Assembly (NCBI GenBank): GCA_041650805.1
Contig: JBAZKM010000003.1
Location: 156,439 to 220,438, forward strand
DNA from: Candidatus Omnitrophota bacterium
GTDB lineage: Bacteria; Omnitrophota; Gorgyraeia; 2-01-FULL-45-10
DNA length: 64,000 bases
Direction: 5' to 3'
How positions within the stretch are numbered: the stretch's first letter is position 1; each line of letters begins with the position of its first letter. Positions 3 to 62,252 of the stretch are shown here, one piece after another. The notes beneath the pieces were generated by a model. The model made no database searches, was not told the origin of the DNA, and saw only the letters and a list, made by a program, of their open reading frames with translations. A program made the position numbers and the translations under genes.

Positions 3-1814
3 GTCGCCGGCATGGAACCGGAAGAGGCGCTTGCGCGCTACAAGGCCGAAAAACGTATCAAAGGTTATGGTTCTACGCACTATATGAAGATGGCGGGATT
101 TTTGAAGGTCCTCCTCCTCGAACTCGCATCGATAGGCATCCCTGCCGGGCAGGTCGCAGATATTGAAGAAGATTATATGAAGATAACGGCCGGCCGGAAG
201 GATACTAAATATCTCTCCGCGACTCAGGACGAAGACAGTGCGGCGCTTATCTATACGCTTAAATTCAGATGGGCCTATCCCGGAGAAGAGGAGAAGGACC
301 GCGAAATAATATTTATAGAATGCGATATGACGCAGCCGGGCAGGTATCCAGATATTCTGAGAGAGGCAATCCGGGAAAAGTTCAATGCATACTATCAGCG
401 CGCAGGCCAGACGATGGCCGACAGCTATACCGCGTTTCTCGCGGAGGCGGCAAAAGGCATCGCCGCAGGCGGGTTTGTTGTCACTGACGACCGCGCATAT
501 CTCAGGGCTACCGAAGCGGACAATAAGGCGATAAGACGCGGTATCCTCGCTTCTCTCGGTTTCGCGGAACTTCCGCCGTCCGAAGATATGCGTAAGTGGG
601 AAGAGAGGATCCTGGCTGTCAACAGCGGCACCAGATACGGCTGGGACGTGGCGATAGAGACGGGTTCCGAATCGATCGGGAAGGTGTCTGCCTCTCCGGC
701 TGTCGGGGACAACGTCCCGATGGAAACGGAGACCGTCTCTGAAGACACTGCAGGGGCAAAAGCCGAGATTCCGAACTTCCTTTTTAGATCAGACACTACT
801 TTAGGAGATATTGAAAATTATTTTGACGCTTTAAGACAAGCGCTTTCGCAGGAAGGTCTTGATGCCGGTACGCGCAAAAAGATGTATAAGGCCGCCCAGG
901 TGGCTGTGGCGAAACTTAGGGTAGGGCTTGGATTGCTGAGAGACGGCAGGATGCTGGGGCATGAACCGTGCCTGGGTTGTGTCAATAACGGCGGTTGCGC
1001 CGTGGTGGCCGGACTTCTGGCCGGAGGTGTCCGTGGATCCGCTCCGGTTGACGACTGCGGAGCGATGAAGAAGCCGGCTATCTCGAACGATGACATCGGG
1101 TTGGCTATCATTGCGCTTGACACGTTCCTGAACGAAGTTAAGGGCGAGAACCGGCTAGAGACAAAGACGGCTCCCGACTCAAACCTCCAATCTCCAATCT
1201 CCAAGCTCCAAGCCCTCTTAGCATCTTCTCTTCAGTACGAGCGCGACAGGGCCGGCACACCCACAGACATAGTACCCGAAGGCCGTACGGTGATGCTCTC
1301 CGAAGGTCTCTTCGATATGGAGAAGAAGACAGAGCTTGTAGAGCTGATACTTAAGAATAGAGGCAGCAGTATACAGATACTCTCTGTAGATGAGCTCCGC
1401 CGCGGCGCCATAAGCGGGAGGGCCGCGAAGGATAATACCATAATAGTCCTTACAGAGGAGGAATTTAACGACCCGAAGGTCTGGAACGGCTATGCCAAGG
1501 AAGAGCGCGGTATAAATTCAAGCGTCCTGTTGCTGGATGATAATGCTAAATTTATAGGCACGAACTACCTCTACCTTGAAAGTGTCCTGAAACTATCGGT
1601 AGCTATAATGGCGGGCAACAGGGGTGCGGTCGGATCCTTCTATAAGCTCATAGCCGGAAGGCCGATAAGCGATGAGGCGCTCGCATCCCTCGGTATTGAC
1701 CCGGTCACCTTTGCCCTCAATGCGATACTGGAGTTCGATGAGATGCGGGTGAAGGATGCCGATGAGTTCGAACAGTATAAGCGCGCCATGGAGGTATTCC
1801 TGGCGGCGGCATAA
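3..1814 (+). CDS. Hypothetical protein, 5'-truncated at window edge. Its C-terminal ~200 aa is homologous to the C-terminus of the 7094-aa giant protein, so this is probably the tail of a paralogous large protein.
   Basis: Frame is open to the window start. The heptamer-encoded linker NLQSPISKLQA (nt 1184-1216) precedes a domain matching the giant's C-terminus (VLLLDDNAKFIG vs VIVLADNKFVSG; LSVAIMAG vs LAVAIALSS; similar length after the linker). Confidence 0.55.
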   Translation, partial: VAGMEPEEALARYKAEKRIKGYGSTHYMKMAGFLKVLLLELASIGIPAGQVADIEEDYMKITAGRKDTKYLSATQDEDSAALIYTLKFRWAYPGEEEKDREIIFIECDMTQPGRYPDILREAIREKFNAYYQRAGQTMADSYTAFLAEAAKGIAAGGFVVTDDRAYLRATEADNKAIRRGILASLGFAELPPSEDMRKWEERILAVNSGTRYGWDVAIETGSESIGKVSASPAVGDNVPMETETVSEDTAGAKAEIPNFLFRSDTTLGDIENYFDALRQALSQEGLDAGTRKKMYKAAQVAVAKLRVGLGLLRDGRMLGHEPCLGCVNNGGCAVVAGLLAGGVRGSAPVDDCGAMKKPAISNDDIGLAIIALDTFLNEVKGENRLETKTAPDSNLQSPISKLQALLASSLQYERDRAGTPTDIVPEGRTVMLSEGLFDMEKKTELVELILKNRGSSIQILSVDELRRGAISGRAAKDNTIIVLTEEEFNDPKVWNGYAKEERGINSSVLLLDDNAKFIGTNYLYLESVLKLSVAIMAGNRGAVGSFYKLIAGRPISDEALASLGIDPVTFALNAILEFDEMRVKDADEFEQYKRAMEVFLAAA

Positions 1815-2112
1815 TGTAGCTATCAGCCTTCAGCTTTCAGTTTTTTTAGCTTTTGCTGATAGCTGTAAGCTGACAGCTGAAAGCTTAAATTTAGCCCGGG
1901 CTAAGCTGGGATGGAGGGACCTTCCCCCGAGTTGGTGGACTCCATCCCAACCCGGGCTTTTTTTAAGCTATCAGCTATCAGTCGTCAGCTTTCAGCCTTG
2001 AAGTGAGACTCGTGAAGTTTCGTATAGATGGATCCATGGGGAGTCAACGTGCTTTTAAAAAGCACTATTGACTTTATTAGCTGACAGCTGATAGCTGATA
2101 GCTGAAAGCTAC
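1812..2112. repeat. Intergenic heptanucleotide (AGCTNTC) tandem arrays in inverted orientation, flanking an ~80-bp core that contains a palindrome (gtgcttttaaaaagcac).
   Basis: Forward arrays agctatcagccttcagctttcag (1820-1845) and agctatcagctatcagtcgtcagctttcagc (1961-1995). Reverse-complement arrays gctgatagctgtaagctgacagctgaaagct (1855-1888) and gctgacagctgatagctgatagctgaaagct (2081-2110). Confidence 0.8.
1905..1962 (+). terminator. Putative intrinsic terminator downstream of the first ORF.
   Basis: Perfect 10-bp stem tgggatggag/ctccatccca (1908-1917 and 1940-1949), followed by cccgggc and a T7 run. Confidence 0.5.
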
Positions 2113-2560
2113 CGGATGACATGACTTTCTCTTTTAACACTTCCTTATTCTTAGGCGACTTGACGCGGCCGAGGGTGAGGTGGGCGGCAAAAGGGCGGGA
2201 CTCTTTTGCAAATCCGATATTCGATAGCTCGTCATCGATCCGCCCGGCAAGCTCAACAGATTCTTTTGCTCCCTTGTCCAGGCCCACCCATATGACGCGA
2301 GGGGATTCGATCCGCGGGAACGCGCCGATCTCTTTTAAATTTATCTCAAACGGTTTCGTCCGGCTTCCGATATCGTCCAGGATGCTCTTTATCTTCCCGG
2401 CCTTCTCTTCCGTTATCTCTCCCAGGAATTTCAGTGTGAGGTGGATATTGCGGGGCTCGACCCACTTCACGTCAGCGCCGGCATATTTGAGGCGGGATTG
2501 TATCTGCGCGAGGGCGCCGCAAATATCGTCAGATATTTCGATGGCGATGAATGTACGCAT
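1985..2560 (-). CDS. thpR: RNA 2',3'-cyclic phosphodiesterase (2H phosphoesterase, LigT/ThpR family).
   Basis: Two H-x-T-x motifs (HLTLKFLGE and HLTLGR) in a ~190-aa protein. The C-terminal residues FKAES are encoded by the heptamer repeat. Confidence 0.8.
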   Translation of the reverse strand: MRTFIAIEISDDICGALAQIQSRLKYAGADVKWVEPRNIHLTLKFLGEITEEKAGKIKSILDDIGSRTKPFEINLKEIGAFPRIESPRVIWVGLDKGAKESVELAGRIDDELSNIGFAKESRPFAAHLTLGRVKSPKNKEVLKEKVMSSGSFQLSAISCQLIKSIVLFKSTLTPHGSIYTKLHESHFKAES

Positions 2561-2565
2561 TGACC

Positions 2566-3876
2566 CTATACGTTTCTTCTCACAAGCTCCAGCGCCGCCT
2601 GCGATGCCTGGAACTTTATCTCTTCGCGCGTTCCCTTGAATCTGAATTCTTTAACGAGAGCTTTCAGCTTTCTGCTTTCAGCTTTCAGCTTTTTACAATC
2701 GTCCATAGCCAAGGCGATATAAACTAAGCCGATGGGTTTCGACTTTGTACCGCCCGTAGGGCCGGCGATGCCCGTGAGAGATAATCCTATATCGGTGCCT
2801 GCGAGCCGCCTCACGCCTTCTGCCATTTCGAGCGCGACCTCGCGCGAAACGGCCCCATATTTCTTGAGGGTAAAGGGAGAGACACCTAGCATATTCACCT
2901 TGGACTCATTCGAATAAGCGATAATACCCATCATGAAATAACCGGAGCTCCCGCTTACGTTAGTAATACGGTGTGAAACGAACCCGCCCGTACAGGATTC
3001 GGCCGTTGCGATCGTCAGCTTCTTACGCTTCAAGGCATTTGCTACGGCGCCTTCGAGCGTATCTTCGTCATATCCGAATATATTACCCCTTAGCCGCGAA
3101 TGGATCTTACCCTCTATCCTTCCTATCACCCGCGCCGCTTCTCTGTCACTATCGGCCTTAGCCATTATCTTCAGGTCGACCTCGCCGAGCTTGGCGTATA
3201 TCCCGACTGTCGTAGGCGGCTTGAGGGAGAGGAGGTCCTTCGCCTTCGCATTGACCTGCGACTCCGCGAGTCCCGTGAGCTTGATCGTACGTGACCTCAG
3301 GGTATAGGGTATAGGGTTTAGGGCATAGTGTTTGAGCAGATAAGGGAGGATTTCGTGTTCCACCATCGGTTCAATTTCGCGCGGCGGCCCCGGGAGCGCG
3401 ATGATCACCTTACCGCGTACTTCCACGATCAATCCAGGCGCGGTGCCGACGCGATTCCGTATACGTTTTGCGCCTTCCGGGATATATGCCTGGCGGATGC
3501 TATCTCGAGGGGCCTTTATCCTGCGTAGTTTGAAGTAGCCGTTCAGGTCTTTCAGGACCGCCCGGTCCAGGATGAGTTCTCTTCCGGTAAGTTTTGCGAT
3601 CGTCTCTATCGTTATGTCATCTACGGTGGGGCCCAGCCCGCCCGAAGTTATTACGACGTCGGACCGGCCGAGCGCCTTCCGGATCGCCTCGGTGAGCCGT
3701 CCCGGATTGTCGCCTACGGTCGTGTGGTGAAATACGTCGATCCCGGCCTCTGCCAGTTTTTGTGAGAGAAAAGCGGCGTTTGTGTTGACGACGTGACCGA
3801 GCAGGAGCTCGGTGCCTATCGCTACGATCTCGGCGGTCATGGGGGTATTATAGCAGGGGCGAGTGACAGCGGTCAA
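2566..3876 (-). CDS. cinA: Competence/damage-inducible protein CinA (N-terminal MoCF-binding domain plus C-terminal CinA/PncC domain).
   Basis: N-terminal AEIVAIGTELLLG...VVITSGGLGPTVDDIT and C-terminal LTIATAESCTGGFVSHRITNVSGSS. Contains two heptamer-repeat-encoded in-frame segments (KLKAESRKLKAL at 2640-2690; NPIPYTL at 3300-3332). Confidence 0.85.
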   Translation of the reverse strand: MTAVTRPCYNTPMTAEIVAIGTELLLGHVVNTNAAFLSQKLAEAGIDVFHHTTVGDNPGRLTEAIRKALGRSDVVITSGGLGPTVDDITIETIAKLTGRELILDRAVLKDLNGYFKLRRIKAPRDSIRQAYIPEGAKRIRNRVGTAPGLIVEVRGKVIIALPGPPREIEPMVEHEILPYLLKHYALNPIPYTLRSRTIKLTGLAESQVNAKAKDLLSLKPPTTVGIYAKLGEVDLKIMAKADSDREAARVIGRIEGKIHSRLRGNIFGYDEDTLEGAVANALKRKKLTIATAESCTGGFVSHRITNVSGSSGYFMMGIIAYSNESKVNMLGVSPFTLKKYGAVSREVALEMAEGVRRLAGTDIGLSLTGIAGPTGGTKSKPIGLVYIALAMDDCKKLKAESRKLKALVKEFRFKGTREEIKFQASQAALELVRRNV

Positions 3877-3880
3877 GAGG

Positions 3881-3922
3881 TTAACGTTCAGCTTTCAGCC
3901 GTCAGCTATCAGCTTTCAGCAA
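3881..3922. repeat. AGCTNTC heptamer array (cinA upstream/divergent region).
   Basis: cagctttcagccgtcagctatcagctttcagc. Confidence 0.8.
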
Positions 3923-3987
3923 AAAAGTTAAAAAAAAGTGCAATAATATTTGAAATTTTAGCATCTATATAGGTAGAAGGGTAAATG

Positions 3988-4032
3988 GCGACTTAGCTAT
4001 CAGCTTTCAGCTGTCAGCTATCAGCAAAAGAA
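3988..4032. repeat. AGCTNTC heptamer array, forward orientation, on the left flank of the four-helix-bundle gene.
   Basis: tagctatcagctttcagctgtcagctatcagc. Confidence 0.8.
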
Positions 4033-4036
4033 GAAT

Positions 4037-4402
4037 ATGAAAGAGCAGAGATTTAGAAAGCTAGAAGTTTGGATCAAAGCAATGGATTTTGTTGAGATGA
4101 TTTATAAGATCACAAACAATTTTCCGCTAAGGGAGACGTATGGTCTTACAAGCCAATTGAGGCGAGCAACGCTATCTATAGCTCTGAATATTGCCGAAGG
4201 AAGCGGCTCTTCTTCCGATAGAGAATTTAGTAGATTCTTGAATATATCTTTGAGGTCATCTTATGAAGTTATGTGCGGCATCGAAGTGGTAAGGCGACTT
4301 AAGTATTGCGATGACAATGCAATAAGCATTTTATCGGACAGATGTGATGAGATATCGGCAATGTTGACCGGTTTAAAGAGAAAGCTGAAAGCTGACGGCT
4401 GA
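4037..4402 (+). CDS. Four-helix-bundle protein of the 23S rRNA intervening-sequence protein family (the family that includes DGR accessory protein Avd).
   Basis: 121 aa with the family signature ...ATLSIALNIAEGSGSSS...FLNISLRSSYEV. The C-terminus KRKLKADG is encoded by the heptamer repeat. Confidence 0.7.
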   Translation: MKEQRFRKLEVWIKAMDFVEMIYKITNNFPLRETYGLTSQLRRATLSIALNIAEGSGSSSDREFSRFLNISLRSSYEVMCGIEVVRRLKYCDDNAISILSDRCDEISAMLTGLKRKLKADG

Positions 4403-4420
4403 TAGCTGAAAGCTGAGGCC
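4383..4420. repeat. AGCTNTC heptamer array in reverse-complement orientation (right flank of the four-helix-bundle gene), forming an inverted pair with 3988-4032.
   Basis: agctgaaagctgacggctgatagctgaaagctgag. Confidence 0.8.
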
Positions 4421-4430
4421 CGAAAACGCT

Positions 4431-4459
4431 TTACAAGAAGGAGGTGACGCAGGTATAAT
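4431..4459 (+). promoter_or_regulatory. Sigma70-like promoter upstream of recA.
   Basis: TTACAA (4431-4436), a 17-nt spacer, and a perfect TATAAT (4454-4459). The AGGAG RBS lies 13 nt before the ATG at 4534. Confidence 0.5.
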
Positions 4460-4533
4460 ATATGCTCTATATTATGTTATATAAAGAACGGTGTAATTGA
4501 TCTGATCTGACTCAAAAAAAGGAGAGTTGAGCA

Positions 4534-5586: not shown

Positions 5587-5594
5587 AGGTCAAG

Positions 5595-6065: not shown

Positions 6066-6069
6066 GTAT

Positions 6070-8658
6070 ATGAAGACCGACGATATACGAAGCTTATTTC
6101 TGGAGTTTTTCCGCGCCAAGGGGCACGAGATAGTGCCGAGTGATTTGCTCGTCCCGAAAGATGACCCGACGCTCCTCTTTACCGGCGCGGGGATGAACCA
6201 GTTCAAGGAGAAGTTCCTGGGCCGGAACGTCACGTACAGGCGCGCGGCATCGAGCCAGAAATGCCTGAGGACCGGCGACCTTGAGAACGTCGGAAAGACG
6301 TCGGGCCACCACACGTTCTTTGAGATGCTCGGCAACTTTTCGTTCGGGGACTATTTCAAGAAAGAGGCGATCTCCTGGGCGTGGGAGTTCATGACTGAGG
6401 AGCTGAAGATACCGGAAGGCCGGCTCCGGGCGTCGGTATATAAAGACGACGCCGAGGCATACGCCATCTGGAGGGACGTCATAAAGATGCCGGAGCGGAA
6501 GATAATAAAGTTCGGCGAAAAGGAGAACTTCTGGCCTTCCGAGGCGCCGACGAAAGGGCCCAACGGGCCGTGCGGGCCGTGTTCCGAGATATTCTACGAC
6601 TACGGCGATGACGTGGGGTGCAAAAAGCCGGGCTGTACGCCTGCGTGCGACTGCGGGAGGTTCATAGAAGTATGGAACCTCGTATTTACCCAGTTCGACA
6701 GGCGACCGGATGGAAAGCTTGAACCGCTCCCGAACAAGAATATCGATACCGGCATGGGGTTGGAGCGCCTGGCGTCGGTGATGCAGGGAGTGAAGACGAA
6801 CTTTGAGATAGACATCTTTGTGCCGATCGTTAAAGAGATAATCAAGGGTATAGGGTTTAGGGTATCGGGTATAGAAAAAGCTAGACCCGAATCCCCATAC
6901 CCCATACCCTATACCCTATACCCTAAGTTGAACGCCATCGCCGATCACATACGTGCGGTGGCATTCATGATCGCAGACGGCGTGATGCCGTCCAATGAAG
7001 AGCGCGGTTATGTGGCGCGCAAGCTCATCAGGCGGTCGCTTAACCACGCGATGGACCTGGAGATAAAAGTGCCTTTCCTTTACAAGCTCGTGAGCACCGT
7101 TTGCGAGGTGATGAAGATGCAGTACCCGGAGCTTTTGGAGAGAAGGGATGACATAGCTCAGGTCGTGAAGCGCGAGGAGGAGAACTTCCTCGTTGTGCTT
7201 GATACGCAGATACCTAAGGTGGAAGAAGCGTTTGAGAAATTTAAAGGTCATCAGGAATTGGCGGAGACGGCGTTCAATTTTTATGATACATACGGAATGC
7301 CGTATGACATGCTTGAGGAGATCGCCGAAAAATTTAAGTTAAAAATAGACAGGGCCGTCTTTGATAAACTTTTGGACAGGCAACGGACGCTTTCTCGCTC
7401 TAAGAGCAAGATAAAGGGCGAGATATTCTCCGAGACCTTCGCGAAGAAGGTGGAGTCGCTCGGTCTCAGGACAGAGTTTCTCGGTTATGAGAAGGCGAAG
7501 CTTGATGCGAAGGTCGCGGCGGTCCTCGAGGGCGGGGAAGTGATACTCGAGAGGACACCGTTCTACGGAGAATCGGGCGGACAGGCGGGTGACTGGGGCA
7601 CGATCGAGACGCCGTCCGGAAAGATGGAAGTGAAAGACGCGAAGAAGATAGGCGATACGATCGTCCATATAGGCATTATGGTCAAAGGAAGGATCGTCAA
7701 GGGCGAGACGGCCAGGGTCGCCATAGATGAAGAGGTGCGCCGCAGGGTGATGCGTAACCATACGGCGACCCATCTACTGCAGGCGGCCCTCCGCAGGGTG
7801 CTCGGTGAACATGTCCACCAGACGGGTTCCCTGGTGGATGCCGAACACCTGAGGTTCGATTTCACCCACATGAAGAAGATGGAGCCCCGCGAGATCGCCC
7901 GTGTCGAGGAGATAGTGAATGAGGCGATAAAGAAGGGCGTGGCTGTCGCAAAGGATATAAAAGATATAGATGATGCCAAGCAGAGCGGCGCCATAGCGCT
8001 CTTCGGCGAGAAGTACGGATCGAAGGTCCGCGTGATCTCGGTCGGGGACATATCCAGGGAGTTCTGCGGCGGGACACACGTCGATAACACAAAGGATATA
8101 GAGCTCTTCAGGATCACCGGCGAGAGCTCGATCGCATCCGGGGTCCGGCGTATCGAGGCGGTAACTGCGGACGCGGCCAGGAAATGGGCGGCGGACGAGA
8201 TCGAGGCCAGGGACGCAAAGCTCAAAGACGAGAAGCGCAAGGAAAAGGAGAAGACGGCAAAGGCCTCGCTCCTCAAGTCGGAATTGGAGAAGGTCGACTC
8301 ATATATAGCTAAAGGCATAGATGCGGGCGGCACCAGGGTCATAGCGGAGATAGTCCCGGGCGGCGTTATGGATATACTGCGCGCGCTGAGCGACGCCATA
8401 AAGTCGAAGGAGAGGTCCGCTGTCATAGTCCTGGCGTCTAAAGATAACGATAAAGTGTCGTTCGTGGTCTCGCTCACAAAGGACATCTTAGGCAGGAAGA
8501 CCCTTACGGCCAATGATATAGCGAAAGATATGGCGAAGTACTTAAGCGGCTCCGGCGGCGGAAGGCCGGATTTCGCTCAGGGCGGCGGAAAAGATCCGTC
8601 GAAACTTGACGAGGCGTTACGGAAAACGTTTGAACTGGTCAAAGAGAGGCTAAGATGA
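6070..8658 (+). CDS. alaS: Alanine--tRNA ligase.
   Basis: 862 aa with class II AlaRS core motifs, editing-domain HxxxH (HTATHLL), and C-terminal DHHA1-like GGGRPDFAQGGG. Carries a palindromic in-frame repeat insertion at 6841-6927. Confidence 0.95.
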   Translation: MKTDDIRSLFLEFFRAKGHEIVPSDLLVPKDDPTLLFTGAGMNQFKEKFLGRNVTYRRAASSQKCLRTGDLENVGKTSGHHTFFEMLGNFSFGDYFKKEAISWAWEFMTEELKIPEGRLRASVYKDDAEAYAIWRDVIKMPERKIIKFGEKENFWPSEAPTKGPNGPCGPCSEIFYDYGDDVGCKKPGCTPACDCGRFIEVWNLVFTQFDRRPDGKLEPLPNKNIDTGMGLERLASVMQGVKTNFEIDIFVPIVKEIIKGIGFRVSGIEKARPESPYPIPYTLYPKLNAIADHIRAVAFMIADGVMPSNEERGYVARKLIRRSLNHAMDLEIKVPFLYKLVSTVCEVMKMQYPELLERRDDIAQVVKREEENFLVVLDTQIPKVEEAFEKFKGHQELAETAFNFYDTYGMPYDMLEEIAEKFKLKIDRAVFDKLLDRQRTLSRSKSKIKGEIFSETFAKKVESLGLRTEFLGYEKAKLDAKVAAVLEGGEVILERTPFYGESGGQAGDWGTIETPSGKMEVKDAKKIGDTIVHIGIMVKGRIVKGETARVAIDEEVRRRVMRNHTATHLLQAALRRVLGEHVHQTGSLVDAEHLRFDFTHMKKMEPREIARVEEIVNEAIKKGVAVAKDIKDIDDAKQSGAIALFGEKYGSKVRVISVGDISREFCGGTHVDNTKDIELFRITGESSIASGVRRIEAVTADAARKWAADEIEARDAKLKDEKRKEKEKTAKASLLKSELEKVDSYIAKGIDAGGTRVIAEIVPGGVMDILRALSDAIKSKERSAVIVLASKDNDKVSFVVSLTKDILGRKTLTANDIAKDMAKYLSGSGGGRPDFAQGGGKDPSKLDEALRKTFELVKERLR
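6841..6927. repeat. Palindromic CCCTATA/GGGTATA heptamer-array insertion inside the alaS coding sequence.
   Basis: gggtatagggtttagggtatcgggtatag + 18-nt spacer + ccccataccccataccctataccctataccc; encodes KGIGFRVSGIEKARPESPYPIPYTLYP. Confidence 0.85.
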
Positions 8659-9875: not shown

Positions 9876-9888
9876 AGGAGCTGATACG

Positions 9889-10503: not shown

Positions 10504-11157
10504 ATGATAGCTATAATCGACTACGGGATGGGTAACCTGAGGAGCGTCCAGAAGGCGTTCGAGGTCACGGGCGCCGGGGCGAAGATCACCTCAAGGGCGG
10601 CCGACCTGGCGAAGGCGGAAAAGGTCGTATTCCCGGGCGTCGGCTCTTTTGGAGAGGCGATGGCGGAACTGAGGAGGCGTAAGCTCGTAGACCCGATAAA
10701 GGGTGCCATCGCAGAGGGCAAGCCGTTCCTCGGCCTCTGCCTCGGGCTTCAACTGCTTTTTGAACGGAGCGAGGAAGCGCCCGGCGTTAAGGGGCTGGGA
10801 GTGCTTAGCGGCAGGGTGAAACGTTTTAAGCCCGCAGTCCACAGCCCACGGCCCAATGCTCAAACGTTGAAAGTCCCGCATATGGGCTGGAATAGTATCA
10901 GCTTTCAGCTTTCAGCTTTCAGCTTTCAGCAAAATATCCTGAAAGGCATAGACAGAGGTTCGTACGTATACTTCGTCCATTCATATTACGTCGATCCGGA
11001 GGATAAGAGTGTGACGCTTACGACGACGGATTATGGTATCCGGTTCGTGTCGGGTATTTCGAAGGATAATCTATTCGGTCTTCAATTCCACCCGGAGAAG
11101 AGCCAGGATACAGGGTTGAAGATAGTGAAGAATTTTGTGAGGATAAAATGCAGATAA
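10504..11157 (+). CDS. hisH: Imidazole glycerol phosphate synthase, glutaminase subunit.
   Basis: GATase-1 with catalytic LGLCLGLQ and PHMGWN...FVHSY. Has an in-frame AGCTTTC heptamer array at 10896-10932. Confidence 0.93.
   Translation: MIAIIDYGMGNLRSVQKAFEVTGAGAKITSRAADLAKAEKVVFPGVGSFGEAMAELRRRKLVDPIKGAIAEGKPFLGLCLGLQLLFERSEEAPGVKGLGVLSGRVKRFKPAVHSPRPNAQTLKVPHMGWNSISFQLSAFSFQQNILKGIDRGSYVYFVHSYYVDPEDKSVTLTTTDYGIRFVSGISKDNLFGLQFHPEKSQDTGLKIVKNFVRIKCR
10896..10932. repeat. AGCTTTC x5 heptamer array inside the hisH coding sequence.
   Basis: tcagctttcagctttcagctttcagctttcagc, encoding SFQLSAFSFQQ between the GWN and FVHSY motifs. Confidence 0.85.
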
Positions 11158-11906
11158 TACCGGCAATAGACATAAGAGAAGGTAAAGTCGTAAGGTTGAT
11201 ACAGGGGGACGTGGGCCTTGAGACCGTCTATTCCGACTCGCCCGTCGCCATGGCGGAGAAGTGGGCGTCTTTCGGGGTCGGCCTGATCCATATAGTCGAT
11301 CTAGACGGCGCCCTCGAAGGATCGCTGAAGAATCTTCCTATAGTAAAAGAGATCGTCAGGAGCGTGAAAGCGAAGATAGAGCTGGGCGGCGGGATAAGGG
11401 ATGAAGCGACTATAAAGGCGGTCATAGACGCCGGTGTGGATAAGGTCATCATAGGGACGAAGGCGCTCGACGAACAATTCCTGGAAAAGGTGGCGAAGAA
11501 GTTCAGGGAGAGGATAATAGTCAGTGTCGATGCCAAAGAAGGTATGGTCCATTCCAGGGGGTGGGTATTCAAGACGAAGATAACCGCGGTCGATCTCGTT
11601 AAGAAGGCGGAGGGGCTCGGTATCGGCAGGATAAATTATACCGACATTTCGAAGGACGGCACGCTTGAAGGGCCGAACATAAAGAGCCTGCAGAAACTCG
11701 TGAATTCTACGGAGATCGATATAGTCGCGGCAGGCGGCGTCTCCACGATAGATGATATAAAGAACCTGAAACCGCTCGAGAAAGACGGCCTCGTGGGCAT
11801 AATCGTCGGTAAGGCGCTCTATGAGAATACGGTCGATCTCGCGGAAGCGATAAGGGTCTGCGGCGGTGCGGATCCGATGGTCAAAGGTCAAGGGGTAAGG
11901 GTCTGA
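11148..11906 (+). CDS. hisA: ProFAR isomerase (phosphoribosylformimino-AICAR-P isomerase).
   Basis: [17 protein letters not shown]..., a (beta/alpha)8 HisA. The C-terminal tail is encoded by GGGTAAG-type repeats (11880-11906). Confidence 0.92.
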
Positions 11907-11910
11907 CGGG

Positions 11911-12687
11911 ATGCTTACAAAGCGTATAATACCGTGTCTCGATGTAAAGAACGGCAGGGTCGTCAAGGGCGTGAACTTCGTCAACCTTAAGGACGCGGGA
12001 GACGCCGTCGAGAACGCGCGTTTTTACGATCGCGAAAAGGCGGACGAGCTTGTATTCCTCGATATAACGGCCAGCCACGAAAGGCGTAAGACCGTTATCG
12101 ACCTGGTGAAGAAGGTGGCGGACAGCGTATTCCTGCCTTTCACCGTAGGGGGCGGCATAGGGACGATCGACGATATCAGGAGCCTCCTTAACGCAGGTTG
12201 CGATAAGGTCTCGGTCAATACCGCGGCGGTGAAGCGGCCTGCGTTCGTGAGGGAGGCATCGCGGAGGTTCGGCAGCCAGTGTATCGTCGTGGCGATCGAC
12301 GCAAAGCGGTCCACAGTCCATGGTCCGCGGTCCACAGGAAAATGGGAAGTGTATATTAACGGGGGACGGACACCGACCGGGATAGATGCGGTAAAGTGGG
12401 CAAAGAGGGCCGAGAAGCTGGGCGCAGGCGAGATCCTCCTTACGAGCATGGACTACGACGGCACTAAAGCGGGTTATGATATCGAGCTTACCGGTCGCAT
12501 AAGCGAAGAGGTCGGCCTCCCGGTCATAGCTTCGGGAGGGGCCGGAACGCTTGAAGATCTGTACGATGCGCTTTCGAAAGGGAAGGCCGATGCGGTGCTG
12601 GCCGCGTCTATATTCCACTTCCGGGAATATTCTATCCCGGAGGCAAAGAGATATCTTAAGGGAAAGGGTGTAAGGGTAAGGTTATGA
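11911..12687 (+). CDS. hisF: Imidazole glycerol phosphate synthase, cyclase subunit.
   Basis: [16 protein letters not shown]..., [19 protein letters not shown]. Contains a GTCCACG repeat segment (STVHGPRST) at 12308-12338. Confidence 0.93.
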
Positions 12688-16930: not shown

Positions 16931-16939
16931 AAGCCATAT

Positions 16940-18750: not shown

Positions 18751-19173
18751 ATGACAGGAGTAAGCATAAGACCGAATCTGCAGTTCTCTGTACTATGTGA
18801 TGATGTGAGGCGCGAGGATAACGGGAAGTTCATGCTCCTCGGCCTTTTCGAAGCGATAAACGCTAAGACCTTCCCGGCAACGCACCATACGCTATTTGTG
18901 GTGAACCGGTGGTGCAAGGGCGAGGGCAGTTTCGTCCAGAGGATACGCATAGTCAACACGAAGGACAAGTCGCTCATCTTCCAGACGGACGACCAGCCGT
19001 TCGAGCTCGCCGATATCGACGCGCACCATACGCTTATATCGAAGTTCAATAACCTCGTCTTCCCCAATGCGGGAAAATACTGGGTCGAGGTCATGATAGA
19101 CGGGGATCTTCTTCTGAACTACCCGATCATGCTGCGGGAGATAAAACAGTCCGAGAACGGAAAAGAGATATGA
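18751..19173 (+). CDS. Hypothetical 140-aa protein inserted between trpB and trpA.
   Basis: Intact ORF with host-like codon usage and an RBS-like GAGGAG 7 nt upstream; no recognisable motif. Confidence 0.5.
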   Translation: MTGVSIRPNLQFSVLCDDVRREDNGKFMLLGLFEAINAKTFPATHHTLFVVNRWCKGEGSFVQRIRIVNTKDKSLIFQTDDQPFELADIDAHHTLISKFNNLVFPNAGKYWVEVMIDGDLLLNYPIMLREIKQSENGKEI

Positions 19174-19979: not shown

Positions 19980-20906
<927 letters not shown>

Positions 20907-51004: not shown

Positions 51005-51023
51005 TAGTACATACTTTTCTTAA

Positions 51024-51068
51024 AGGAGGAAAAGTGGGTTTAAGCATTGTTTAGACCCATTTTTTTTT
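51024..51068 (+). terminator. Leader element: RBS + 6-codon ORF (GTG..MGLSIV) embedded in a hairpin followed by a T9 run (candidate attenuator upstream of rimP).
   Basis: AGGAGG 51024-51029; GTG 51034; stem gggtttaag/tttagaccc (51036-51058) with loop cattg; T9 at 51060-51068. Confidence 0.45.
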
Positions 51069-51090
51069 GCCCCAAAATCGGAGCCTACAA

Positions 51091-51543: not shown

Positions 51544-51556
51544 CGAGAGGTCAATC

Positions 51557-54984: not shown

Positions 54985-54985
54985 C

Positions 54986-57388: not shown

Positions 57389-58427
57389 CGCGATAGACGC
57401 CGGGATATTGAAGCTTCTGAATAAGAGGGCAAAGGTCATATCCGATATAGGCAGGATAAAGGCAAAGAGCAGGAGATCGGTATATGTGCCGCACCGGGAG
57501 GCGGAGGTATATGATAAGCTGGTCTCGAAGAACAGGGGGCCGCTCCCGAACGAATCTGTCATAGCCGTGTTCAGGGAGATAATGTCCGGGTCTCTCGCCC
57601 TGGAAAAGCCGACCGTCATCGCATACCTGGGGCCCGAGGCCACTTTCACCCATATGGCGGCTCTTAAGAAGTTCGGCTCCAGTGTCACATACAAGAGCTG
57701 TGACACCATAACCGATGTATTTTCCGAGGTGGAGAAAGGCCGGGCCGATTACGGCGTCGTCCCGATAGAGAATTCGTGGGAGGGGGCCATAAGCCATACC
57801 CTCGACATGCTCATAGATTCGGACCTAAAGGTCTGTTCGGAGATATTCCTGGATATATCGCACAGCCTTCTATCCAGGGAGGCGGACAAGAGCAGGATAA
57901 GAAGGATATATTCGAAACCCGAGGTCTTCGGCCAATGCAGGATATGGATAGAGTCGAATATGCCGAAGGCTGAGCTCGTGGATGCCTCGAGCACGACAAA
58001 GGCCGCCGAGATAGCTTCCGGCCAGAAGGGGTCCGCCTGCATAGCGAGCGAACTCGCCGCAGGACATTACGGGCTTAAGGTCCTTGAGAGCGGCATAGAG
58101 GATAGCGCCCATAATGTGACGCGCTTCCTTGTCATAGGTAAGACGGACGCGGAACGGACGAAGAACGACAAGACGTCCATAATGCTCTCCGTGAAGGATA
58201 AGGTAGGAGCGTTGCACGACATACTCGTGCCGTTCAAAAGATACGGGATAAACCTGACGAAGATAGAATCGAGGCCTTCAAAGGTGAGGGCCTGGGAGTA
58301 CTATTTCTTTGTCGATCTCGAAGGTCATTACAGCGATCCGAAAGTATCCAGGGCGCTCGATATGCTGAGGAAGAACTCTGCGCACCTCAAGATACTCGGA
58401 TCGTATCCGGCGGGAAATGGAGCATAA
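57357..58427 (+). CDS. pheA: Bifunctional chorismate mutase / prephenate dehydratase (P-protein) with C-terminal ACT domain.
   Basis: N-terminal CM domain (LKRLRRIVDAIDAGILKLLNKRAKV), PDT domain, and ACT domain (SIMLSVKDKVGALHDIL). Confidence 0.9.
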   Translation: MDLKRLRRIVDAIDAGILKLLNKRAKVISDIGRIKAKSRRSVYVPHREAEVYDKLVSKNRGPLPNESVIAVFREIMSGSLALEKPTVIAYLGPEATFTHMAALKKFGSSVTYKSCDTITDVFSEVEKGRADYGVVPIENSWEGAISHTLDMLIDSDLKVCSEIFLDISHSLLSREADKSRIRRIYSKPEVFGQCRIWIESNMPKAELVDASSTTKAAEIASGQKGSACIASELAAGHYGLKVLESGIEDSAHNVTRFLVIGKTDAERTKNDKTSIMLSVKDKVGALHDILVPFKRYGINLTKIESRPSKVRAWEYYFFVDLEGHYSDPKVSRALDMLRKNSAHLKILGSYPAGNGA

Positions 58428-58434
58428 CTAAATA

Positions 58435-58510
58435 GTCACCAAGTCACCAGGTCACAAAGTCACCAGTGAAAGCTTTTACGGGTGACGTGGTGACCTGGTG
58501 TCCTGGTGAC
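58435..58510. repeat. ~75-bp imperfect palindromic intergenic element built from GTCACCA heptamers (copy 1).
   Basis: gtcaccaagtcaccaggtcacaaagtcaccagtgaaagcttttacgggtgacgtggtgacctggtgtcctggtgac. It shares the 31-nt core caaagtcaccagtgaaagcttttacgggtgac with 60639-60708. Confidence 0.85.
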
Positions 58511-58527
58511 CAAATAAGCTATATACT

Positions 58528-59619
58528 ATGAAAAATCTTGTGCGAAAGAACATACTGGGCGTCAAACCGTACGTCCCCGGGAAACCGATAGAGGAAGTCG
58601 AGAGGGAGCTGGGCCTTAAGGACGTCATCAAGCTGGCGTCCAACGAGAGCTGCCTCGGCCCTTCGCCCAGGGCGCTGGCCGCGGTAAGGAAGAACCTGGG
58701 TAAGATAAACCGGTATCCTGACGCCTCATCTTTCTATCTTAAGGAGAGGACGGCGAAGTTCCTCGGCGTGAAGCCGGATAATCTCGTATTCGGGAACGGT
58801 TCTGATGAGATCATCTGCCTTGCGCTCAGGGTCTTTGCCGGGGAAGGCGACGAGGTCATAATAGCCCGTCCCACCTTCCTTATCTATGAGATCGCCTCTC
58901 AGATCCAGAACGCTACGGCAAAGTTCGTTCCCCTGACGGCCGATTTCAGGTATGATCTCAACGCGATGAAGAGGGCGGTAACCGCAAAGACGAAGATCAT
59001 CTTCATCGCCAACCCGGATAACCCGACAGGCACCTATGTCACGAAGGCGGAGCTTGACGAATTCTTCGACGGGCTTCCCGATAAGGTGGTCGTATTCCTG
59101 GATGAAGCGTATTTTGAGTTCGCCGATCACGGCCGGAAGGACTATCCGAACGGTCTCGATTATATCAAGCGCCCGAACGTCATAGTATCGAGGTCTTTTT
59201 CGAAGGCGTACGGCCTCGCCGGCCTCAGGGTAGGTTACGGCGTAGCCAACCCCGGTATCATAAGTTACATCGAGCGTGTGCGAGAGCCGTTCAACGTGAA
59301 TATACTGGCCCAGGCAGGGGCTCTTGCCGCCCTTGACGATGCCGCCTTCCTCAAGAGGAAGCTGGCGCATGTGGCCAAAGAGAAGGAATTTCTCTATTCT
59401 GCCTTCGGCTCCATGGGACTCCGGTATGTCCCGAGCGCGACGAATTTTATACTCGTAGACGTAAAGAAGGACTGCAAGACCGTCTTCGGCGGACTGCTGA
59501 AGAGGGGCGTGATAGTGCGCGATATGAAGGCGTGGGGCATGGATACGTTCATCCGCGTCACGGTCGGCACGCGTGCGGAGAATCGTAAGTTCATTAAAGC
59601 GCTCAGGGGGGCATTATGA
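58528..59619 (+). CDS. hisC: Histidinol-phosphate aminotransferase.
   Basis: NPDNPTGTY, SFSKAYGLAGLRVGY (PLP lysine), 363 aa. Confidence 0.92.
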   Translation: MKNLVRKNILGVKPYVPGKPIEEVERELGLKDVIKLASNESCLGPSPRALAAVRKNLGKINRYPDASSFYLKERTAKFLGVKPDNLVFGNGSDEIICLALRVFAGEGDEVIIARPTFLIYEIASQIQNATAKFVPLTADFRYDLNAMKRAVTAKTKIIFIANPDNPTGTYVTKAELDEFFDGLPDKVVVFLDEAYFEFADHGRKDYPNGLDYIKRPNVIVSRSFSKAYGLAGLRVGYGVANPGIISYIERVREPFNVNILAQAGALAALDDAAFLKRKLAHVAKEKEFLYSAFGSMGLRYVPSATNFILVDVKKDCKTVFGGLLKRGVIVRDMKAWGMDTFIRVTVGTRAENRKFIKALRGAL

Positions 59620-60632
59620 TAATAGTATTGCGGCCCGACGCAACGAAGAAACAGCTGGACCACATAGTCGCCAGGATAAAGAAACTTAAACTGAAACCGT
59701 GGATATCCAAAGGCGTAGAGCGGACAATCATCGGGGTGATAGGGGAAGAGGACGTGATACGCGCTCAGCCGCTGGAAGTATTCCCCGGCGTAGAGCGAGT
59801 ATTGTCGATACTGAAACCGTACAAGCTGGCGTCACGCGATCTCAATAAAGAGGGAACCGTAGTCGATGCCGGCGGCGGTGTGAAGGTGGGCGGCAAAGAG
59901 ATAGTCGTGATGGCCGGTCCGTGTTCGGTCGAGAACAGGCCGCTGCTGCTGGAGATAGCGCGGGCGGTAAAAAAGGCGGGCGCCAAAGTGCTGCGGGGCG
60001 GCGCATTCAAGCCCAGGACGTCACCGTACGCGTTCCAGGGGCTCGGCCTGAAAGGGCTCAAGCTTCTTGCGGAGGCGAAGACCGAGACGGGGCTCCTTAT
60101 CGTCACCGAGCTGATGGATATACGGGACCTCGATGCCGTGCTGAAGTATGCCGACATAATACAGATCGGCGCCAGGAACATGCAGAACTTCAACCTCCTG
60201 AAAGAGGTCGGGAAGTCGAAGAAGCCCGTGCTCCTCAAGCGCGGTATGGCGAATACGGTGAAAGAGTTCCTGATGTCAGCCGAATATATACTTTCAGAAG
60301 GTAACTTTAAGGTCATACTCTGCGAGAGGGGTATAAGGACGTTCGAGGATGCCACGCGTTTTACGCTCGATATAAGCGCCGTGCCTGTCGTAAAGAACCT
60401 GAGCCACCTGCCCATAATCGTAGATCCGTCGCACGCGACCGGTAAGTGGGGGCTTGTGGGCGCATGCGCGAAGGCAGGGTTGGCCGCAGGGGCGGACGGC
60501 CTCATAATCGAAGTCCACCCTAATCCGGAAGAGGCATTTTCTGACGGAGAACAGTCGCTCTATCCTAAAAACTTCGCGTCTCTCATGGGCGAACTGCGCA
60601 AGGTAGCGAAGGCGGTAGGAAGGGAGATGTAA
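59616..60632 (+). CDS. aroF: 3-deoxy-7-phosphoheptulonate (DAHP) synthase, class I-beta.
   Basis: GPCSVENRPLLLEIARAVKKAGAKVLRGGAFKPRTSPYAFQGLG, VDPSHATG. The symbol follows common annotation usage. Confidence 0.85.
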   Translation: MIIVLRPDATKKQLDHIVARIKKLKLKPWISKGVERTIIGVIGEEDVIRAQPLEVFPGVERVLSILKPYKLASRDLNKEGTVVDAGGGVKVGGKEIVVMAGPCSVENRPLLLEIARAVKKAGAKVLRGGAFKPRTSPYAFQGLGLKGLKLLAEAKTETGLLIVTELMDIRDLDAVLKYADIIQIGARNMQNFNLLKEVGKSKKPVLLKRGMANTVKEFLMSAEYILSEGNFKVILCERGIRTFEDATRFTLDISAVPVVKNLSHLPIIVDPSHATGKWGLVGACAKAGLAAGADGLIIEVHPNPEEAFSDGEQSLYPKNFASLMGELRKVAKAVGREM

Positions 60633-60638
60633 CATTCA

Positions 60639-60708
60639 TGTCACAAAGTCACCAGTGAAAGCTTTTACGGGTGACCTGGTGACGGGTGACCTGGTGACCG
60701 AGAGGCTA
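60639..60708. repeat. GTCACCA-heptamer palindromic intergenic element (copy 2).
   Basis: tgtcacaaagtcaccagtgaaagcttttacgggtgacctggtgacgggtgacctggtgac. Confidence 0.85.
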
Positions 60709-60709
60709 T

Positions 60710-61567
60710 ATGATTCGATTTAATAAGGTCGCGATAATCGGCGTAGGATTGATGGGCGGCTCGATCGGGCTGGCAGTGAAGAAGCGAAGAGTGGCCGGAG
60801 AGGTCATCGGCGTCTTCAGGCATGCCTCCACTTTGAGGAGGGCCCTGAAGAGAAGGGCCGTAGACCGCGGGACCCTGAGCATAGAGGAGGGCGTAAAGGA
60901 CGCCGACCTAATTATAATAGCAACGCCCGTATATTCCATACCGCCGCTTGCGGCAAAAGTGATGCGTTATGCGAAGAAGGGGGCCATGATCACCGATGCA
61001 GGCAGCACGAAGAAGTGGCTGGTGGGAGAAGTCGAGAGGAAACTCGGTAGTTCCCGCCGGGTATTTTTCGTAGGGTCCCATCCTATGGCCGGGTCGGAAC
61101 ACGCAGGGGTTGAGTTCGCCAGGGACAACCTCCTGGCCGATGCCCCGTGCATAGTGACGAGGACCCCGAAGACCGACAGGCGCGCCCTCGGGGCCGTCAT
61201 CAACTTCTGGTCGGCGCTGGGCGCAAGGGTCGCCATTATGGACCCTTCCGCACACGACAGGAACATATCGTTCGCAAGCCATCTGCCGCACCTGGTCGCT
61301 TTCGGCGTCATAGGGGCCGTCCCGGAGAAGTATTTCCTCTATTCGGCGGAGGGCTTTAAAGACACTACGAGAGTGGCATCGAGCGACCCCAGGATGTGGA
61401 CGGATATCTTCCTGACCAACAGAAAAGATGTCCTGAGGTCGGCCCGCATGTTCAAGGGCTACCTCGGCGAGATAGTACGGGTGGTGAAGAACGGAGATTC
61501 CAAGAAGCTCTTCCGCCTGCTTAAGAGCGCAAAGATGAAGCGCGACAAATTCTTTTATGGGAAATAA
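60710..61567 (+). CDS. tyrA: Prephenate dehydrogenase.
   Basis: VAIIGVGLMGGSIGLAV NAD(P)-binding, HPMAGSE. Confidence 0.88.
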   Translation: MIRFNKVAIIGVGLMGGSIGLAVKKRRVAGEVIGVFRHASTLRRALKRRAVDRGTLSIEEGVKDADLIIIATPVYSIPPLAAKVMRYAKKGAMITDAGSTKKWLVGEVERKLGSSRRVFFVGSHPMAGSEHAGVEFARDNLLADAPCIVTRTPKTDRRALGAVINFWSALGARVAIMDPSAHDRNISFASHLPHLVAFGVIGAVPEKYFLYSAEGFKDTTRVASSDPRMWTDIFLTNRKDVLRSARMFKGYLGEIVRVVKNGDSKKLFRLLKSAKMKRDKFFYGK

Positions 61568-62252
61568 GAGCCCGCGGACGCTCGTGATAGCAATAGACGG
61601 GCCTGCGGGGAGCGGAAAGAGCACCGTCTCCAAGCTTATAGCTAAAAAGCTCGGCATACTGTATGTAGACACAGGGGCCATGTACAGGGCGCTTACCCTT
61701 AAGGCGATGCGGGAACGTATAGACCTCAAAGATGAAGATGCCCTGGTATCATTGGCCCGTTCCACCGGCATAGACCTTGGCGAAGGGGCCGGGCGCCTCA
61801 GGGTGCTGCTTGACGGAGAAGACGTGGCGGGCCTCATACGCACGCCGGAACTGACCGCAAATATAAAGTACATAGCGCGGGTGCCGGGGGTGAGGCACGA
61901 GATGGTGAGACTCCAGCGCGCCATAGGCAAACGGCAGGGCGCCGTCCTGGAGGGAAGGGATATAGGCACGGTCGTATTCCCGGACGCCGACCATAAATTC
62001 TATCTTGACGCAAGCGTCAAAGAGAGGGCCAGGCGCAGGCACAGGGAGTTGCTTGAGTCCGGCGAAAAGGTCAGCGTTGAGGAGATAGAGAAAGATATAG
62101 TCGTAAGGGACGAATCGGACATAAAGAGGGAGGTCGGCGCGCTCAAAAAGGCCGACGACGCCGTTCTCATCGATACGACGGGCCTCACGATAAATGAGGT
62201 AGTAGAGAAGATATTAAGTCATATACCCGATACCCTATACCCTATACCCTGA
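61557..62252 (+). CDS. cmk: Cytidylate kinase.
   Basis: IAIDGPAGSGKSTVSK, VDTGAMYRA. The C-terminal residues DTLYPIP are encoded by the CCCTATA repeat (62225-62250). Confidence 0.92.
   Translation: MGNKSPRTLVIAIDGPAGSGKSTVSKLIAKKLGILYVDTGAMYRALTLKAMRERIDLKDEDALVSLARSTGIDLGEGAGRLRVLLDGEDVAGLIRTPELTANIKYIARVPGVRHEMVRLQRAIGKRQGAVLEGRDIGTVVFPDADHKFYLDASVKERARRRHRELLESGEKVSVEEIEKDIVVRDESDIKREVGALKKADDAVLIDTTGLTINEVVEKILSHIPDTLYPIP

Follow-up and report, generated by a model that had tools for sequence, protein, structure and literature searches.

Tandem heptanucleotide modules in an Omnitrophota genome and their association with genes for 23S rRNA intervening-sequence proteins

What kind of genetic object is a short array of tandem heptanucleotides that turns up both between the genes of a bacterial chromosome and, in frame, within its housekeeping genes? 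The question was raised by a stretch of 64,000 nucleotides from a Candidatus Omnitrophota bacterium (assembly GCA_041650805.1, contig JBAZKM010000003.1, positions 156,439 to 220,438)—referred to here, at its full length, as the window—in which a first-pass annotation, made from the letters alone, had noticed several families of heptamer repeats. We confirm that the arrays are real modules of about 30 bases composed of tandem 7-base repeats, and report that some of them bracket, in inverted orientation, a gene for a 23S rRNA intervening-sequence protein (IVP; PF05635/TIGR02436), which arrangement, to judge from the loci compared, recurs across phyla with a repeat unit that appears to be inherited along with the protein lineage. 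All the statements made below at the level of the source genome rest on these 64 kb, with their one IVP gene; the L-numbers designate loci from relatives, controls, and metagenomes.

Tandem Repeats Finder (TRF) reported some 30 period-7 arrays in the window, at nearly all the coordinates given in the first-pass annotation, whose several heptamer families are real. Exact period-7 runs of at least 12 matches numbered 10, versus 0.0 in simulations with a first-order Markov model that preserved the dinucleotide frequencies of the window; at all the other periods from 1 to 13 the window contained no such run, while the six runs of period 14 and the single one of period 15 overlapped period-7 arrays, in stretches that TRF reports at 7/14 and 8/15. 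A mismatch-tolerant scan yielded 21–23 arrays per 64 kb (0.33/kb), a density well above the expectation set by 79 unrelated alaS loci, in which 1.37 Mb contained 20 arrays (0.015/kb) with no preference for period 7. Those loci were the yield of a contig scan with AlaS-alignment patterns that proved too universal—almost all of them are non-Omnitrophota—and were reused as negative controls. The window arrays comprise 3–5.6 units (median 4.4, about 30 nt), a minority having period 8, and identical units occur at many separate sites. Per base, the intergenic space is strongly enriched in arrays, yet roughly half of them are read in frame; the intergenic ones begin 4–7 nt past stop codons or overlap them. 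Neither a target-site duplication nor a conserved flank was present at the 28 arrays examined, no transposase was seen in the window, and neither strand contained a dimer of the units CCCCAGT, TTGGTCA, or CAACAGT that define the short tandemly repeated repetitive (STRR) sequences STRR1–3. An Rfam scan of the window gave 0 matches and no rRNA, a tRNA scan found none, and in a search for population variants, among which a phase-variable contingency locus would show itself by its copy number, the clusters of the source genome were all singletons in the databases.

The reading-through of the arrays in frame likewise held as first described, with the predicted peptides—PIPYTL(Y), for example—in cinA, ligT, alaS, hisH, hisF, an NTP-transferase gene, cmk, and a gene of 7094 codons, within which last the arrays sit between Pfam domains. 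The array-bearing genes of the window are housekeeping genes, all in frame, and the window open reading frames (ORFs) agree with the NCBI annotation of the source metagenome-assembled genome, one protein of which, on a 224-kb contig, is 100% identical to the window AlaS. Certain entries had to be amended. The stretch 12658–12685, taken for an insertion, is the native and conserved C-terminus of HisF (KGV.VRL in all the orthologues and in PDB 4EVZ); the arrays at 33866–33895 and 11880–11906 exist in only a weak or degenerate form; the family designated GTCACCA includes arrays of period 8, at 35632, 37095, and 58434–58511; and the region 1812–2112, listed as intergenic, is so only in part, in that ligT is located there on the minus strand (1985–2560), the plus-strand ORF 2121–2639 being spurious. 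TRF, for its part, added arrays with the units AGCCCAC and GCTCACA (10829, 45111, 47386) to those first listed.

The IVP gene of the window is identified by 119.5 bits (cut-off 33.8) and 115.6 bits (cut-off 24) with the PF05635 and TIGR02436 profiles, and its product is homologous to XCC0516 (PDB 2GSC, E = 9e-21), published as a pentamer, and to the protein of PDB 2RLD, each entry containing five chains. A weak match to bAvd (PF22296, E = 6e-4) remained below the cut-off; the Avd accessory proteins belong to the same superfamily of four-helix-bundle pentamers, and a diversity-generating retroelement was rejected as an identification since neither a reverse transcriptase nor a template/variable repeat pair was found in the window. 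Gene and arrays together form a cassette of about 430 nt that occupies the cinA–recA spacer and not, as does an S23p-type intervening sequence, helix 9, 25, or 45 of a 23S rRNA gene. The outer arms, of AGCTNTC units (3887–3917 and 4380–4410, 31 nt), have a complementarity of 94% that extends to the irregular units; the right arm contains the stop codon of the IVP gene; and the predicted fold of 3880–4425 closes on the arm stem (z = -5.3). The proximity of AGCT-family arrays to the IVP gene is not confined to the two arms: four of the five merged window loci of that family lie within 2.5 kb of the gene (p ~ 2e-4), and in the syntenic locus L086, where an IVP gene is present, all eight arrays belong to the family, whereas in the six syntenic loci that lack the gene such arrays number 0–1.

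Four further Omnitrophota-type cassettes bring to five the loci with inverted AGCT-family arrays at both ends of the IVP gene. In the window, L086, L088, and L090 the arrays of either side exceed the scan threshold; the upstream arm of L089 is recognized by eye only. In the four further cassettes the arms directly adjoin the ORF, the hosts have 37–49% GC, and the cassettes occupy tight gaps of unrelated operons (cinA–recA, genes E–F of a type II secretion system, DUF72–quinolinate phosphoribosyltransferase, and glycosyltransferases). The closest homologues of the window IVP numbered 120, at 55–75% identity, and most of their contigs are shorter than 3 kb, as is to be expected because a repeat of this type should break assemblies. 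In 58 of 121 IVP sequences the last 12 residues contain LK[AT][DE], which motif is the translation of (AGCTGAN)n, and some N-terminal extensions read LSAFSSQLS. The window IVP matched no known defence protein in PADLOC, and no relatives of it were found among the phages of IMG/VR and INPHARED; therefore, no viral vector is evident. The cinA–recA spacer (window 3877–4533) was seen to be variable in its own right: the IVP gene is present in the window and L086 (6536–6895), three ORF6N genes occupy the site in L085 (6746–8288) and one in L087 (1004–1522), and the spacer is empty in L001, L002, and L084, the recA promoter region downstream being conserved. No arrays were detected at the scan threshold near the ORF6N cassettes of L085 and L087.

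A tblastn search of 72,556 plasmids with the window IVP returned 37 records, mostly from heterocystous cyanobacteria, out of which we retrieved 18 loci (Nostoc, Calothrix, Trichormus, Anabaena, Scytonema, Aulosira, Stanieria, Geminocystis, Picosynechococcus, Pseudanabaena, Leptolyngbya, Azospirillum, Riemerella, and Gemmatirosa), a sample biased toward cyanobacteria. In nearly all 18 the ORF is situated between inverted arrays of period 7—or, in three, of period 8—with at least 4–5 units, the unit varying between loci. When 22 loci were scanned (the five Omnitrophota-type and 17 plasmid ones), a downstream array was found in every one and an upstream array above threshold in 18. In a set of 24 loci, to which two metagenomic ones had been added and from which Nostoc C052 had been excluded as the same plasmid region as that of N. 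punctiforme, the complementarity between the upstream and downstream arrays exceeded the 95th percentile of mismatched locus pairs in 20. As a control, 50 kb from N. punctiforme with 59 genes contained six arrays, two of which exactly flank the sole IVP gene. Furthermore, in all 18 pairs of IVPs with a mutual identity of at least 58% the two units are identical or related, and this holds across orders of cyanobacteria.

A metagenome scan for (GTCCACG)3 gave 80 loci, with 39–74% GC and arrays of up to 22 units, in which the hidden Markov model (HMM) of the IVP detected three genes, each adjoining GTCCACG-family arrays; in L139 and L166 inverted arms of the family are present on both sides, while L116 was judged from the array list only. 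The GTCCACG unit, thus, is shared far beyond the Omnitrophota (L139, L166, L116, and other loci), and the units TCAGAAT/TCAGGAG were found in Nostocales plasmids, in the Bryobacterales locus L052, and in the published MTYCTGA class of Geobacter. No IVP gene was found beside the hairpins of Geobacter, Bryobacterales, and others, either by tblastn in the first 83 loci or by the HMM in all loci, and arrays can therefore exist without an IVP gene nearby. The termini of 149 diverse IVP representatives gave only a weak signal of 7-residue periodicity because the arrays mostly lie outside the ORF.

Published data agree with these findings. A four-unit GGGAATC repeat lies between bccP and XCC0516, with an overlap of 17 nt with the latter (PMC4692102, supplementary table), and the intervening sequence (IVS) in the 23S rRNA gene of Coxiella has a 28-bp terminal stem with 3–4 tandem GACAGAT units directly 5' of the S23p ATG, strains differing by one unit; the RNase III cut falls at the first repeat (PMC4990558). 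IVP genes have also been reported in cas operons, with no mention of repeats (PMC3936711). In L101 (Anabaena sp. 90), L105 (Picosynechococcus), L106 (Pseudanabaena), and L100 (Nostoc edaphicum), cassettes were observed in the operon gaps cas6/cas4 and cas10(cmr2)/cmr3 and in that of a ribonucleotide reductase gene pair. What has been reported as a CRISPR association of this family may thus simply reflect insertion into any tight operon gap, and if the heptamer association proves to be genome-wide, those genes would have to be reinterpreted as generic intercistronic cassettes. The family in question is large, PF05635 comprising 18,526 clusters at 50% identity.

The structure of the arrays bears on how they arose. 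Inverted pairs were found at 1818/1855, 1966/2079, 3887 and 3995 versus 4380, 6845/6893 (within alaS), 58434/58481, and 60639/60667; these fold into hairpins of 28–38 bp in which irregular units match across the arms. The RNA folds of the pairs lie well beyond those of shuffled sequences (-33.7 to -59.9 kcal/mol, z from -4.7 to -8.7), with the exception of the weak fold of 60636–60706 (-25.8 kcal/mol, z = -2.2). The 58434 and 60639 hairpins share an identical core of 36 nt, the loop included, and must be copies of one element for that reason. Within cinA, the AGCTTTC array is a clean insertion of 11 codons, or 33 nt—a multiple of 3, though not of 7—which is absent from five relatives, with no intermediates, the comparison of orthologues having been proposed in the first-pass annotation. 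Of the internal coding arrays, 14 of 16 are in an orientation whose tandem reading contains no stop codon, and in the other two (cinA 2659, alaS 6845) point changes fall on the very positions at which TGA or TAG would arise in a perfect array; among the metagenome arrays a stop-free frame was present in 43 of 65, a proportion inflated by high GC. The cinA insertion and the avoidance of stops argue for the insertion of a pre-formed block followed by purifying selection over a growth in place unit by unit, so far as the sequences allow a judgment. Something more than local slippage spreads the repeats, to judge from the shared units, the identical 36-nt core, and the 33-nt insert; the dedicated process first proposed for them remains an inference, and nothing in the data points to a repeat-expanding enzyme. 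The first-pass annotation had noticed neither the inverted pairing of many arrays, nor the conservation of their sites among relatives, nor the position of the AGCTNTC arrays on either side of the IVP gene.

The sites, for their part, persist while the units change. We compared seven syntenic Omnitrophota loci whose AlaS are 66–71% identical to that of the window; the arrays were again of period 7 only. An array is present at residue 259 of alaS in seven of eight genomes and within residues 108–136 of hisH in six of eight, other shared sites being the ligT loop (common to L086), the 3' ends of hisA and hisI, and the hisD–hisB gap. From genome to genome the unit changes (AGGGTAT, GTCCACG, CGTACAG, GTCACCA, CGAACGA, AGCTGTA), the sites within one genome tending toward a common unit family, and one array, in L003, is as long as 86 nt. 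Among 120 AlaS orthologues the loop at residue 259 is hypervariable, and at least three consecutive identities between residues i and i+7 were found in 24 of the 120 versus 22 of 4873 control windows. When set against solved structures, the alaS segment exceeds that of the E. coli AlaRS by 17 residues, and the hisF segment that of HisF-LUCA by seven.

Certain observations in those loci deserve to be recorded. In L004 (12634–13322), labelled Planctomycetia, inverted AGCTATA/AGCTGTA arrays flank hisB in the hisD–hisB and hisB–hisH gaps, the same family being present in the hisD–hisB gap of L086; the gene order alaS–hisD–hisB–hisH of L004 is Omnitrophota-like, so that the label may be doubtful. 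Restriction-modification genes (an N6_N4 methyltransferase and a MjaI-type endonuclease) lie within the his or trp operon of L003 (6679–8669) and L087 (12630–15793). A gene with a weak match to a Y1 transposase (Y1_Tnp), of the type of IS200 or of the transposases associated with repetitive extragenic palindromes (REPs), the RAYT, stands beside recA in L003 only (239–910), where no adjoining heptamer arrays were detected.

Knowledge of dispersed heptamer repeats goes back to 1990 and that of the 23S IVS proteins to 1993; neither, so far as we are aware, has an established mechanism or function. What the first-pass annotation considered unusual is not without precedent: dispersed tandem heptamers, some of them intragenic, include the STRRs of heterocystous cyanobacteria such as Calothrix and Nostoc, GGGNATC in Xanthomonas and Nostoc, GGGACCG and MTYCTGA in Geobacter metallireducens, and TAACTGA in Beggiatoaceae, the mechanism not being known for any of these (PMC4692102, PMC2700814, PMC4679880). 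The window arrays resemble the STRRs in being dispersed tandems of 7-nt units with a preference for about four units, in forming frequent convergent (inverted) pairs, and in lying a few nucleotides from stop or start codons, with some copies intragenic; they differ in that the host is an Omnitrophota, the units are others, and some half of the arrays, read in frame, occupy conserved hot spots in housekeeping genes, and the link to a PF05635 cassette is unmentioned in the STRR papers. With the S23p IVSs of Coxiella burnetii and Leptospira the cassette shares its length of about 430 nt, the PF05635 ORF in the loop, and the terminal inverted-repeat stem of about 28 bp; in contrast, it lies in the cinA–recA spacer and others within protein-coding operons, its arms are wholly heptameric, and it has many ORF-less relatives dispersed in the genome, some in coding sequence. 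A full-text search, which covered few subscription journals and so does not prove novelty, found no literature on Omnitrophota heptamers or on a general link between IVPs and heptamers; the Coxiella study reported heptamers in its single IVS (PMC4990558). Our verdict, then, is that the repeats are an STRR-type system of a known kind, whereas their link to IVP cassettes is newly seen.

Other classes of short palindromic repeats spread within genomes: Rickettsia palindromic elements (RPEs) can lie in frame within essential genes, where the protein surface tolerates them, REPs are located at the 3' ends of operon genes, miniature transposable elements with inverted repeats (MITEs) have target-site duplications, and the hairpins formed by paired REPs (REPINs) are accompanied by a RAYT transposase. 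Unlike all these, which have a defined non-tandem sequence, the window arms are tandem heptamers with a lineage-dependent unit. As identifications, a MITE was rejected on account of the lack of duplications and conserved flanks at the 28 arrays in spite of the inverted arms, and a REP/REPIN–RAYT system because the Pfam scans of 44 window ORFs gave no Y1_Tnp. G-quadruplex formation as a general explanation (PMC4692102) was likewise rejected, since the units AGCTTTC and GTCACCA form the same modules of 4–5 units.

The explanation we favour, and hold to be probable with a good margin for error, is that modules of the STRR type are the building blocks of a system of selfish or regulatory elements resembling the IVSs. 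The full element would be the cassette of two inverted arrays around an IVP/S23p gene in the layout of the Coxiella IVS, whose transcribed arms would pair into a duplex of 28–38 bp of the type cut by RNase III in Coxiella; by analogy, such a cut in this organism would free the cassette or the neighbouring cistrons from operon transcripts. Hairpins that lack the ORF, together with solo arms, whether of the same family or of others, would derive from or depend on the IVP cassettes and be dispersed as blocks by copying. The copies would land in intercistronic gaps and in permissive protein loops or linkers, where selection would retain only those that preserve the frame and have no stop codons. 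A site once established would persist as a hot spot, its unit being replaced or homogenised in each genome, so that the hot spots would be old sites overwritten, either by gene conversion or by re-seeding, with the families active in that genome. A bolder version, which we put forward tentatively and believe less probable than its contrary, would make the heptamers and the PF05635 proteins the halves of one system, in which the pentamer recognises the cognate tandem heptamers at one unit per protomer and thereby promotes or regulates their spread or processing; one unit per protomer would account for the modules of 4–5 units.

Several points weigh against this explanation. The 64 kb contain a sole IVP gene, and the majority of arrays, with five families out of six, are not near any such gene; hairpins unaccompanied by one were also found in control loci (the Geobacter L011, for example). 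The window arrays came with no target-site duplication, conserved flank, or transposase, and mobility is documented only as presence or absence. Efficient cutting by RNase III of a 28-bp duplex within the alaS mRNA would do harm, and the Coxiella S23p is apparently not expressed (PMC4990558). The persistence of the hot spots, moreover, may reflect ancient arrays under selection instead of repeated seeding, and the IVP genes could have inserted into pre-existing heptamer hairpins, against which, without excluding it, the co-variation of unit and lineage argues.

Among the alternatives, the one that best withstands the evidence, though we think it improbable, is that the arrays are host cis-regulatory elements under selection that punctuate operons through mRNA processing or stability, translational coupling, or sites for a regulator (S1, Csp, or CsrA, for example), the IVP genes being merely co-located in the gaps. 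Arrays that lie 0–7 nt from stop or start codons and fill the intercistronic gaps, the array-bearing successive gaps of operons in L090 and L004/L086, the conservation of sites across genomes, and similar published proposals (PMC4679880, PMC2700814) all speak for such a role, which, however, would leave unexplained the arrays in protein loops and linkers, a unit that tracks the IVP lineage rather than the host, and the restriction of numerous AGCT-family arrays to syntenic loci with an IVP gene. This alternative is compatible with the element system proposed above and does not exclude it.

Ordinary microsatellites, generated neutrally in situ by slippage of chance proto-repeats with no link to an element or gene, would have the head-to-tail structure observed, and slippage does occur, as evidenced by the 86-nt array of L003, the metagenome loci with up to 22 units, and the one-unit difference between Coxiella strains. 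That this process alone made the arrays is nevertheless very unlikely: identical units are encountered at many unlinked sites and across genomes, array size has a narrow mode of 4–5 units, the cinA insert of 33 nt is not a multiple of 7 and lacks intermediates, irregular units are matched between inverted partners, core and loop are identical at two loci, the enrichment is restricted to periods 7 and 8, and the IVP genes are systematically bracketed. The window arrays would therefore seem not to be plain slippage microsatellites. We attach an equally slight chance to the proposition that IVP genes are mobile by themselves and home into the loops of pre-existing heptamer hairpins, the arrays being a target and not a part of the element. 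ORF-less hairpins of the same build do exist (alaS, 58434, 60639), and IVSs replace hairpin loops or tetraloops in 23S rRNA (PMC4990558); yet IVP homologues only 55–75% identical, in hosts of 37–53% GC, all have AGCT-type arms, even beside arrays of another family (L089), the unit follows the IVP clade across cyanobacterial orders (Nostoc 7120 with Stanieria, Calothrix with Pseudanabaena), and the cinA–recA spacers of L001, L002, and L084 look empty of both arms and ORF. As to an artefact of assembly or sequencing, for which we found no support beyond the short contigs of the IVP homologues, which fit an assembly-breaking repeat, it may be dismissed in view of the intact and annotated reading frames and the occurrence of arrays of this kind at matching gene positions in assemblies from four independent sources (NCBI, JGI, ENA, and Logan), as well as the presence of arrays in finished cyanobacterial plasmids.

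If the association were genome-wide, the functions of both the heptamers and the IVPs would become testable by simple experiments; and if repeats and proteins did form one system, the IVP cassettes would be widespread selfish or regulatory elements of a new class, by which peptide patches are also introduced into proteins. In the Omnitrophota, a repeat system thus reshapes the loops of essential enzymes and supplies linker sequence in the giant genes. Annotators, for their part, should be warned that low-complexity patches of this type are real. The individual arrays are listed in Table 1.

Table 1. Heptamer arrays and the IVP gene in the window, in window coordinates.
Feature	Position	Strand	Location and remarks
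CTCCAAT/CTCCAAG array, 5 units	1178..1213	+	In frame in ORF 12-1814, aa 389-401, DSNLQSPISKLQA
AGCTNTC/GCTGANA inverted pair	1818..1889	.	Hairpin 4 nt past ORF 12-1814 stop; fold -33.7 kcal/mol, z = -4.7
Two inverted AGCT-family arrays, 1966-1996 and 2079-2110	1966..2110	-	One in ligT variable loop (aa ~151), the other across ligT stop codon; fold -59.9 kcal/mol, z = -8.6
AGCTTTC array in cinA	2659..2692	-	33-nt/11-codon insertion, KKLKAESRKLKA; T>A change abolishes in-frame TGA
AGGGTAT (= CCCTATA) array	3299..3333	-	In frame in cinA, aa 182-193, ALNPIPYTL
Two direct AGCTNTC arrays, 3887-3920 and 3995-4025	3887..4025	+	5' of IVP gene; left arm(s) of cassette
IVP gene, four-helix-bundle protein	4037..4402	+	PF05635/TIGR02436
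GAAAGCT array, 5.3 units, right cassette arm	4380..4416	+	Encodes last residues RKLKADG, includes TGA stop
AGGGTAT x4 / CCCTATA x4.7 hairpin	6845..6925	+	In frame in alaS, aa 258-286; fold -42.7 kcal/mol, z = -6.7; substitutions in left arm abolish in-frame TAG
AGCCCAC array 10829-10855 and TCAGCTT array 10898-10930	10829..10930	+	In frame in hisH, aa 109-143
Degenerate AAGGGTC-type array	11880..11906	+	HisA C-terminal extension; homologous to clearer arrays in L002, L003
Degenerate GTCCACG array in hisF	12307..12335	+	Seven residues longer than HisF-LUCA
ACCCTAT array, trpA / NTP-transferase junction	19985..20011	+	Translated in transferase N-terminal extension
Perfect GGTCCAC x4.4 array in NTP-transferase	20501..20531	+	
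Two period-8 GGTCACCA arrays, 35632-35665 and 37095-37125	35632..37125	+	Inter-domain stretches of giant gene
Array cluster, C-terminal part of giant gene	45111..49833	+	45111-45146, 47386-47424, 47443-47472, 48016-48039, 48085-48111, 49768-49799, 49805-49833
Hairpin AGTCACCA x4 / GGTGACCT x4	58434..58511	.	Between pheA and aminotransferase gene; fold -50.5 kcal/mol, z = -8.7
Second copy of 58434 hairpin element	60639..60708	.	Between DAHP synthase gene and tyrA
TATACCC x4 array	62222..62250	+	cmk C-terminus, HIPDTLYPIP*

As to the genes among which these features lie, the window contains ligT–cinA, recA–recX–alaS, the his and trp operons, a giant multi-enzyme gene, nusA–infB, and genes for aromatic amino acids, 42 of the 44 genes being on the plus strand; the whole window has a strong purine excess on that strand (G>C and A>T). 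The giant gene (29171–50455, plus strand) is a single ORF of 7094 aa of the Omnitrophota type, with GNAT, SAM-methyltransferase, Fic, protein-kinase, and HD domains followed by mTERF-like and radical-SAM-like matches. ORF 12–1814 (plus strand, 600 aa), which has no family match, can probably be regarded as the 3'-terminal part of another giant gene, to judge from its position: in relatives (L001, 1–4565; L084, 1–6233; L085, 1–5327) a second giant ORF of 8,000–9,600 aa ends at the corresponding place, upstream of ligT. Finally, a DUF6941 gene (18751–19173, plus strand) was observed between trpB and trpA in the trp operon.

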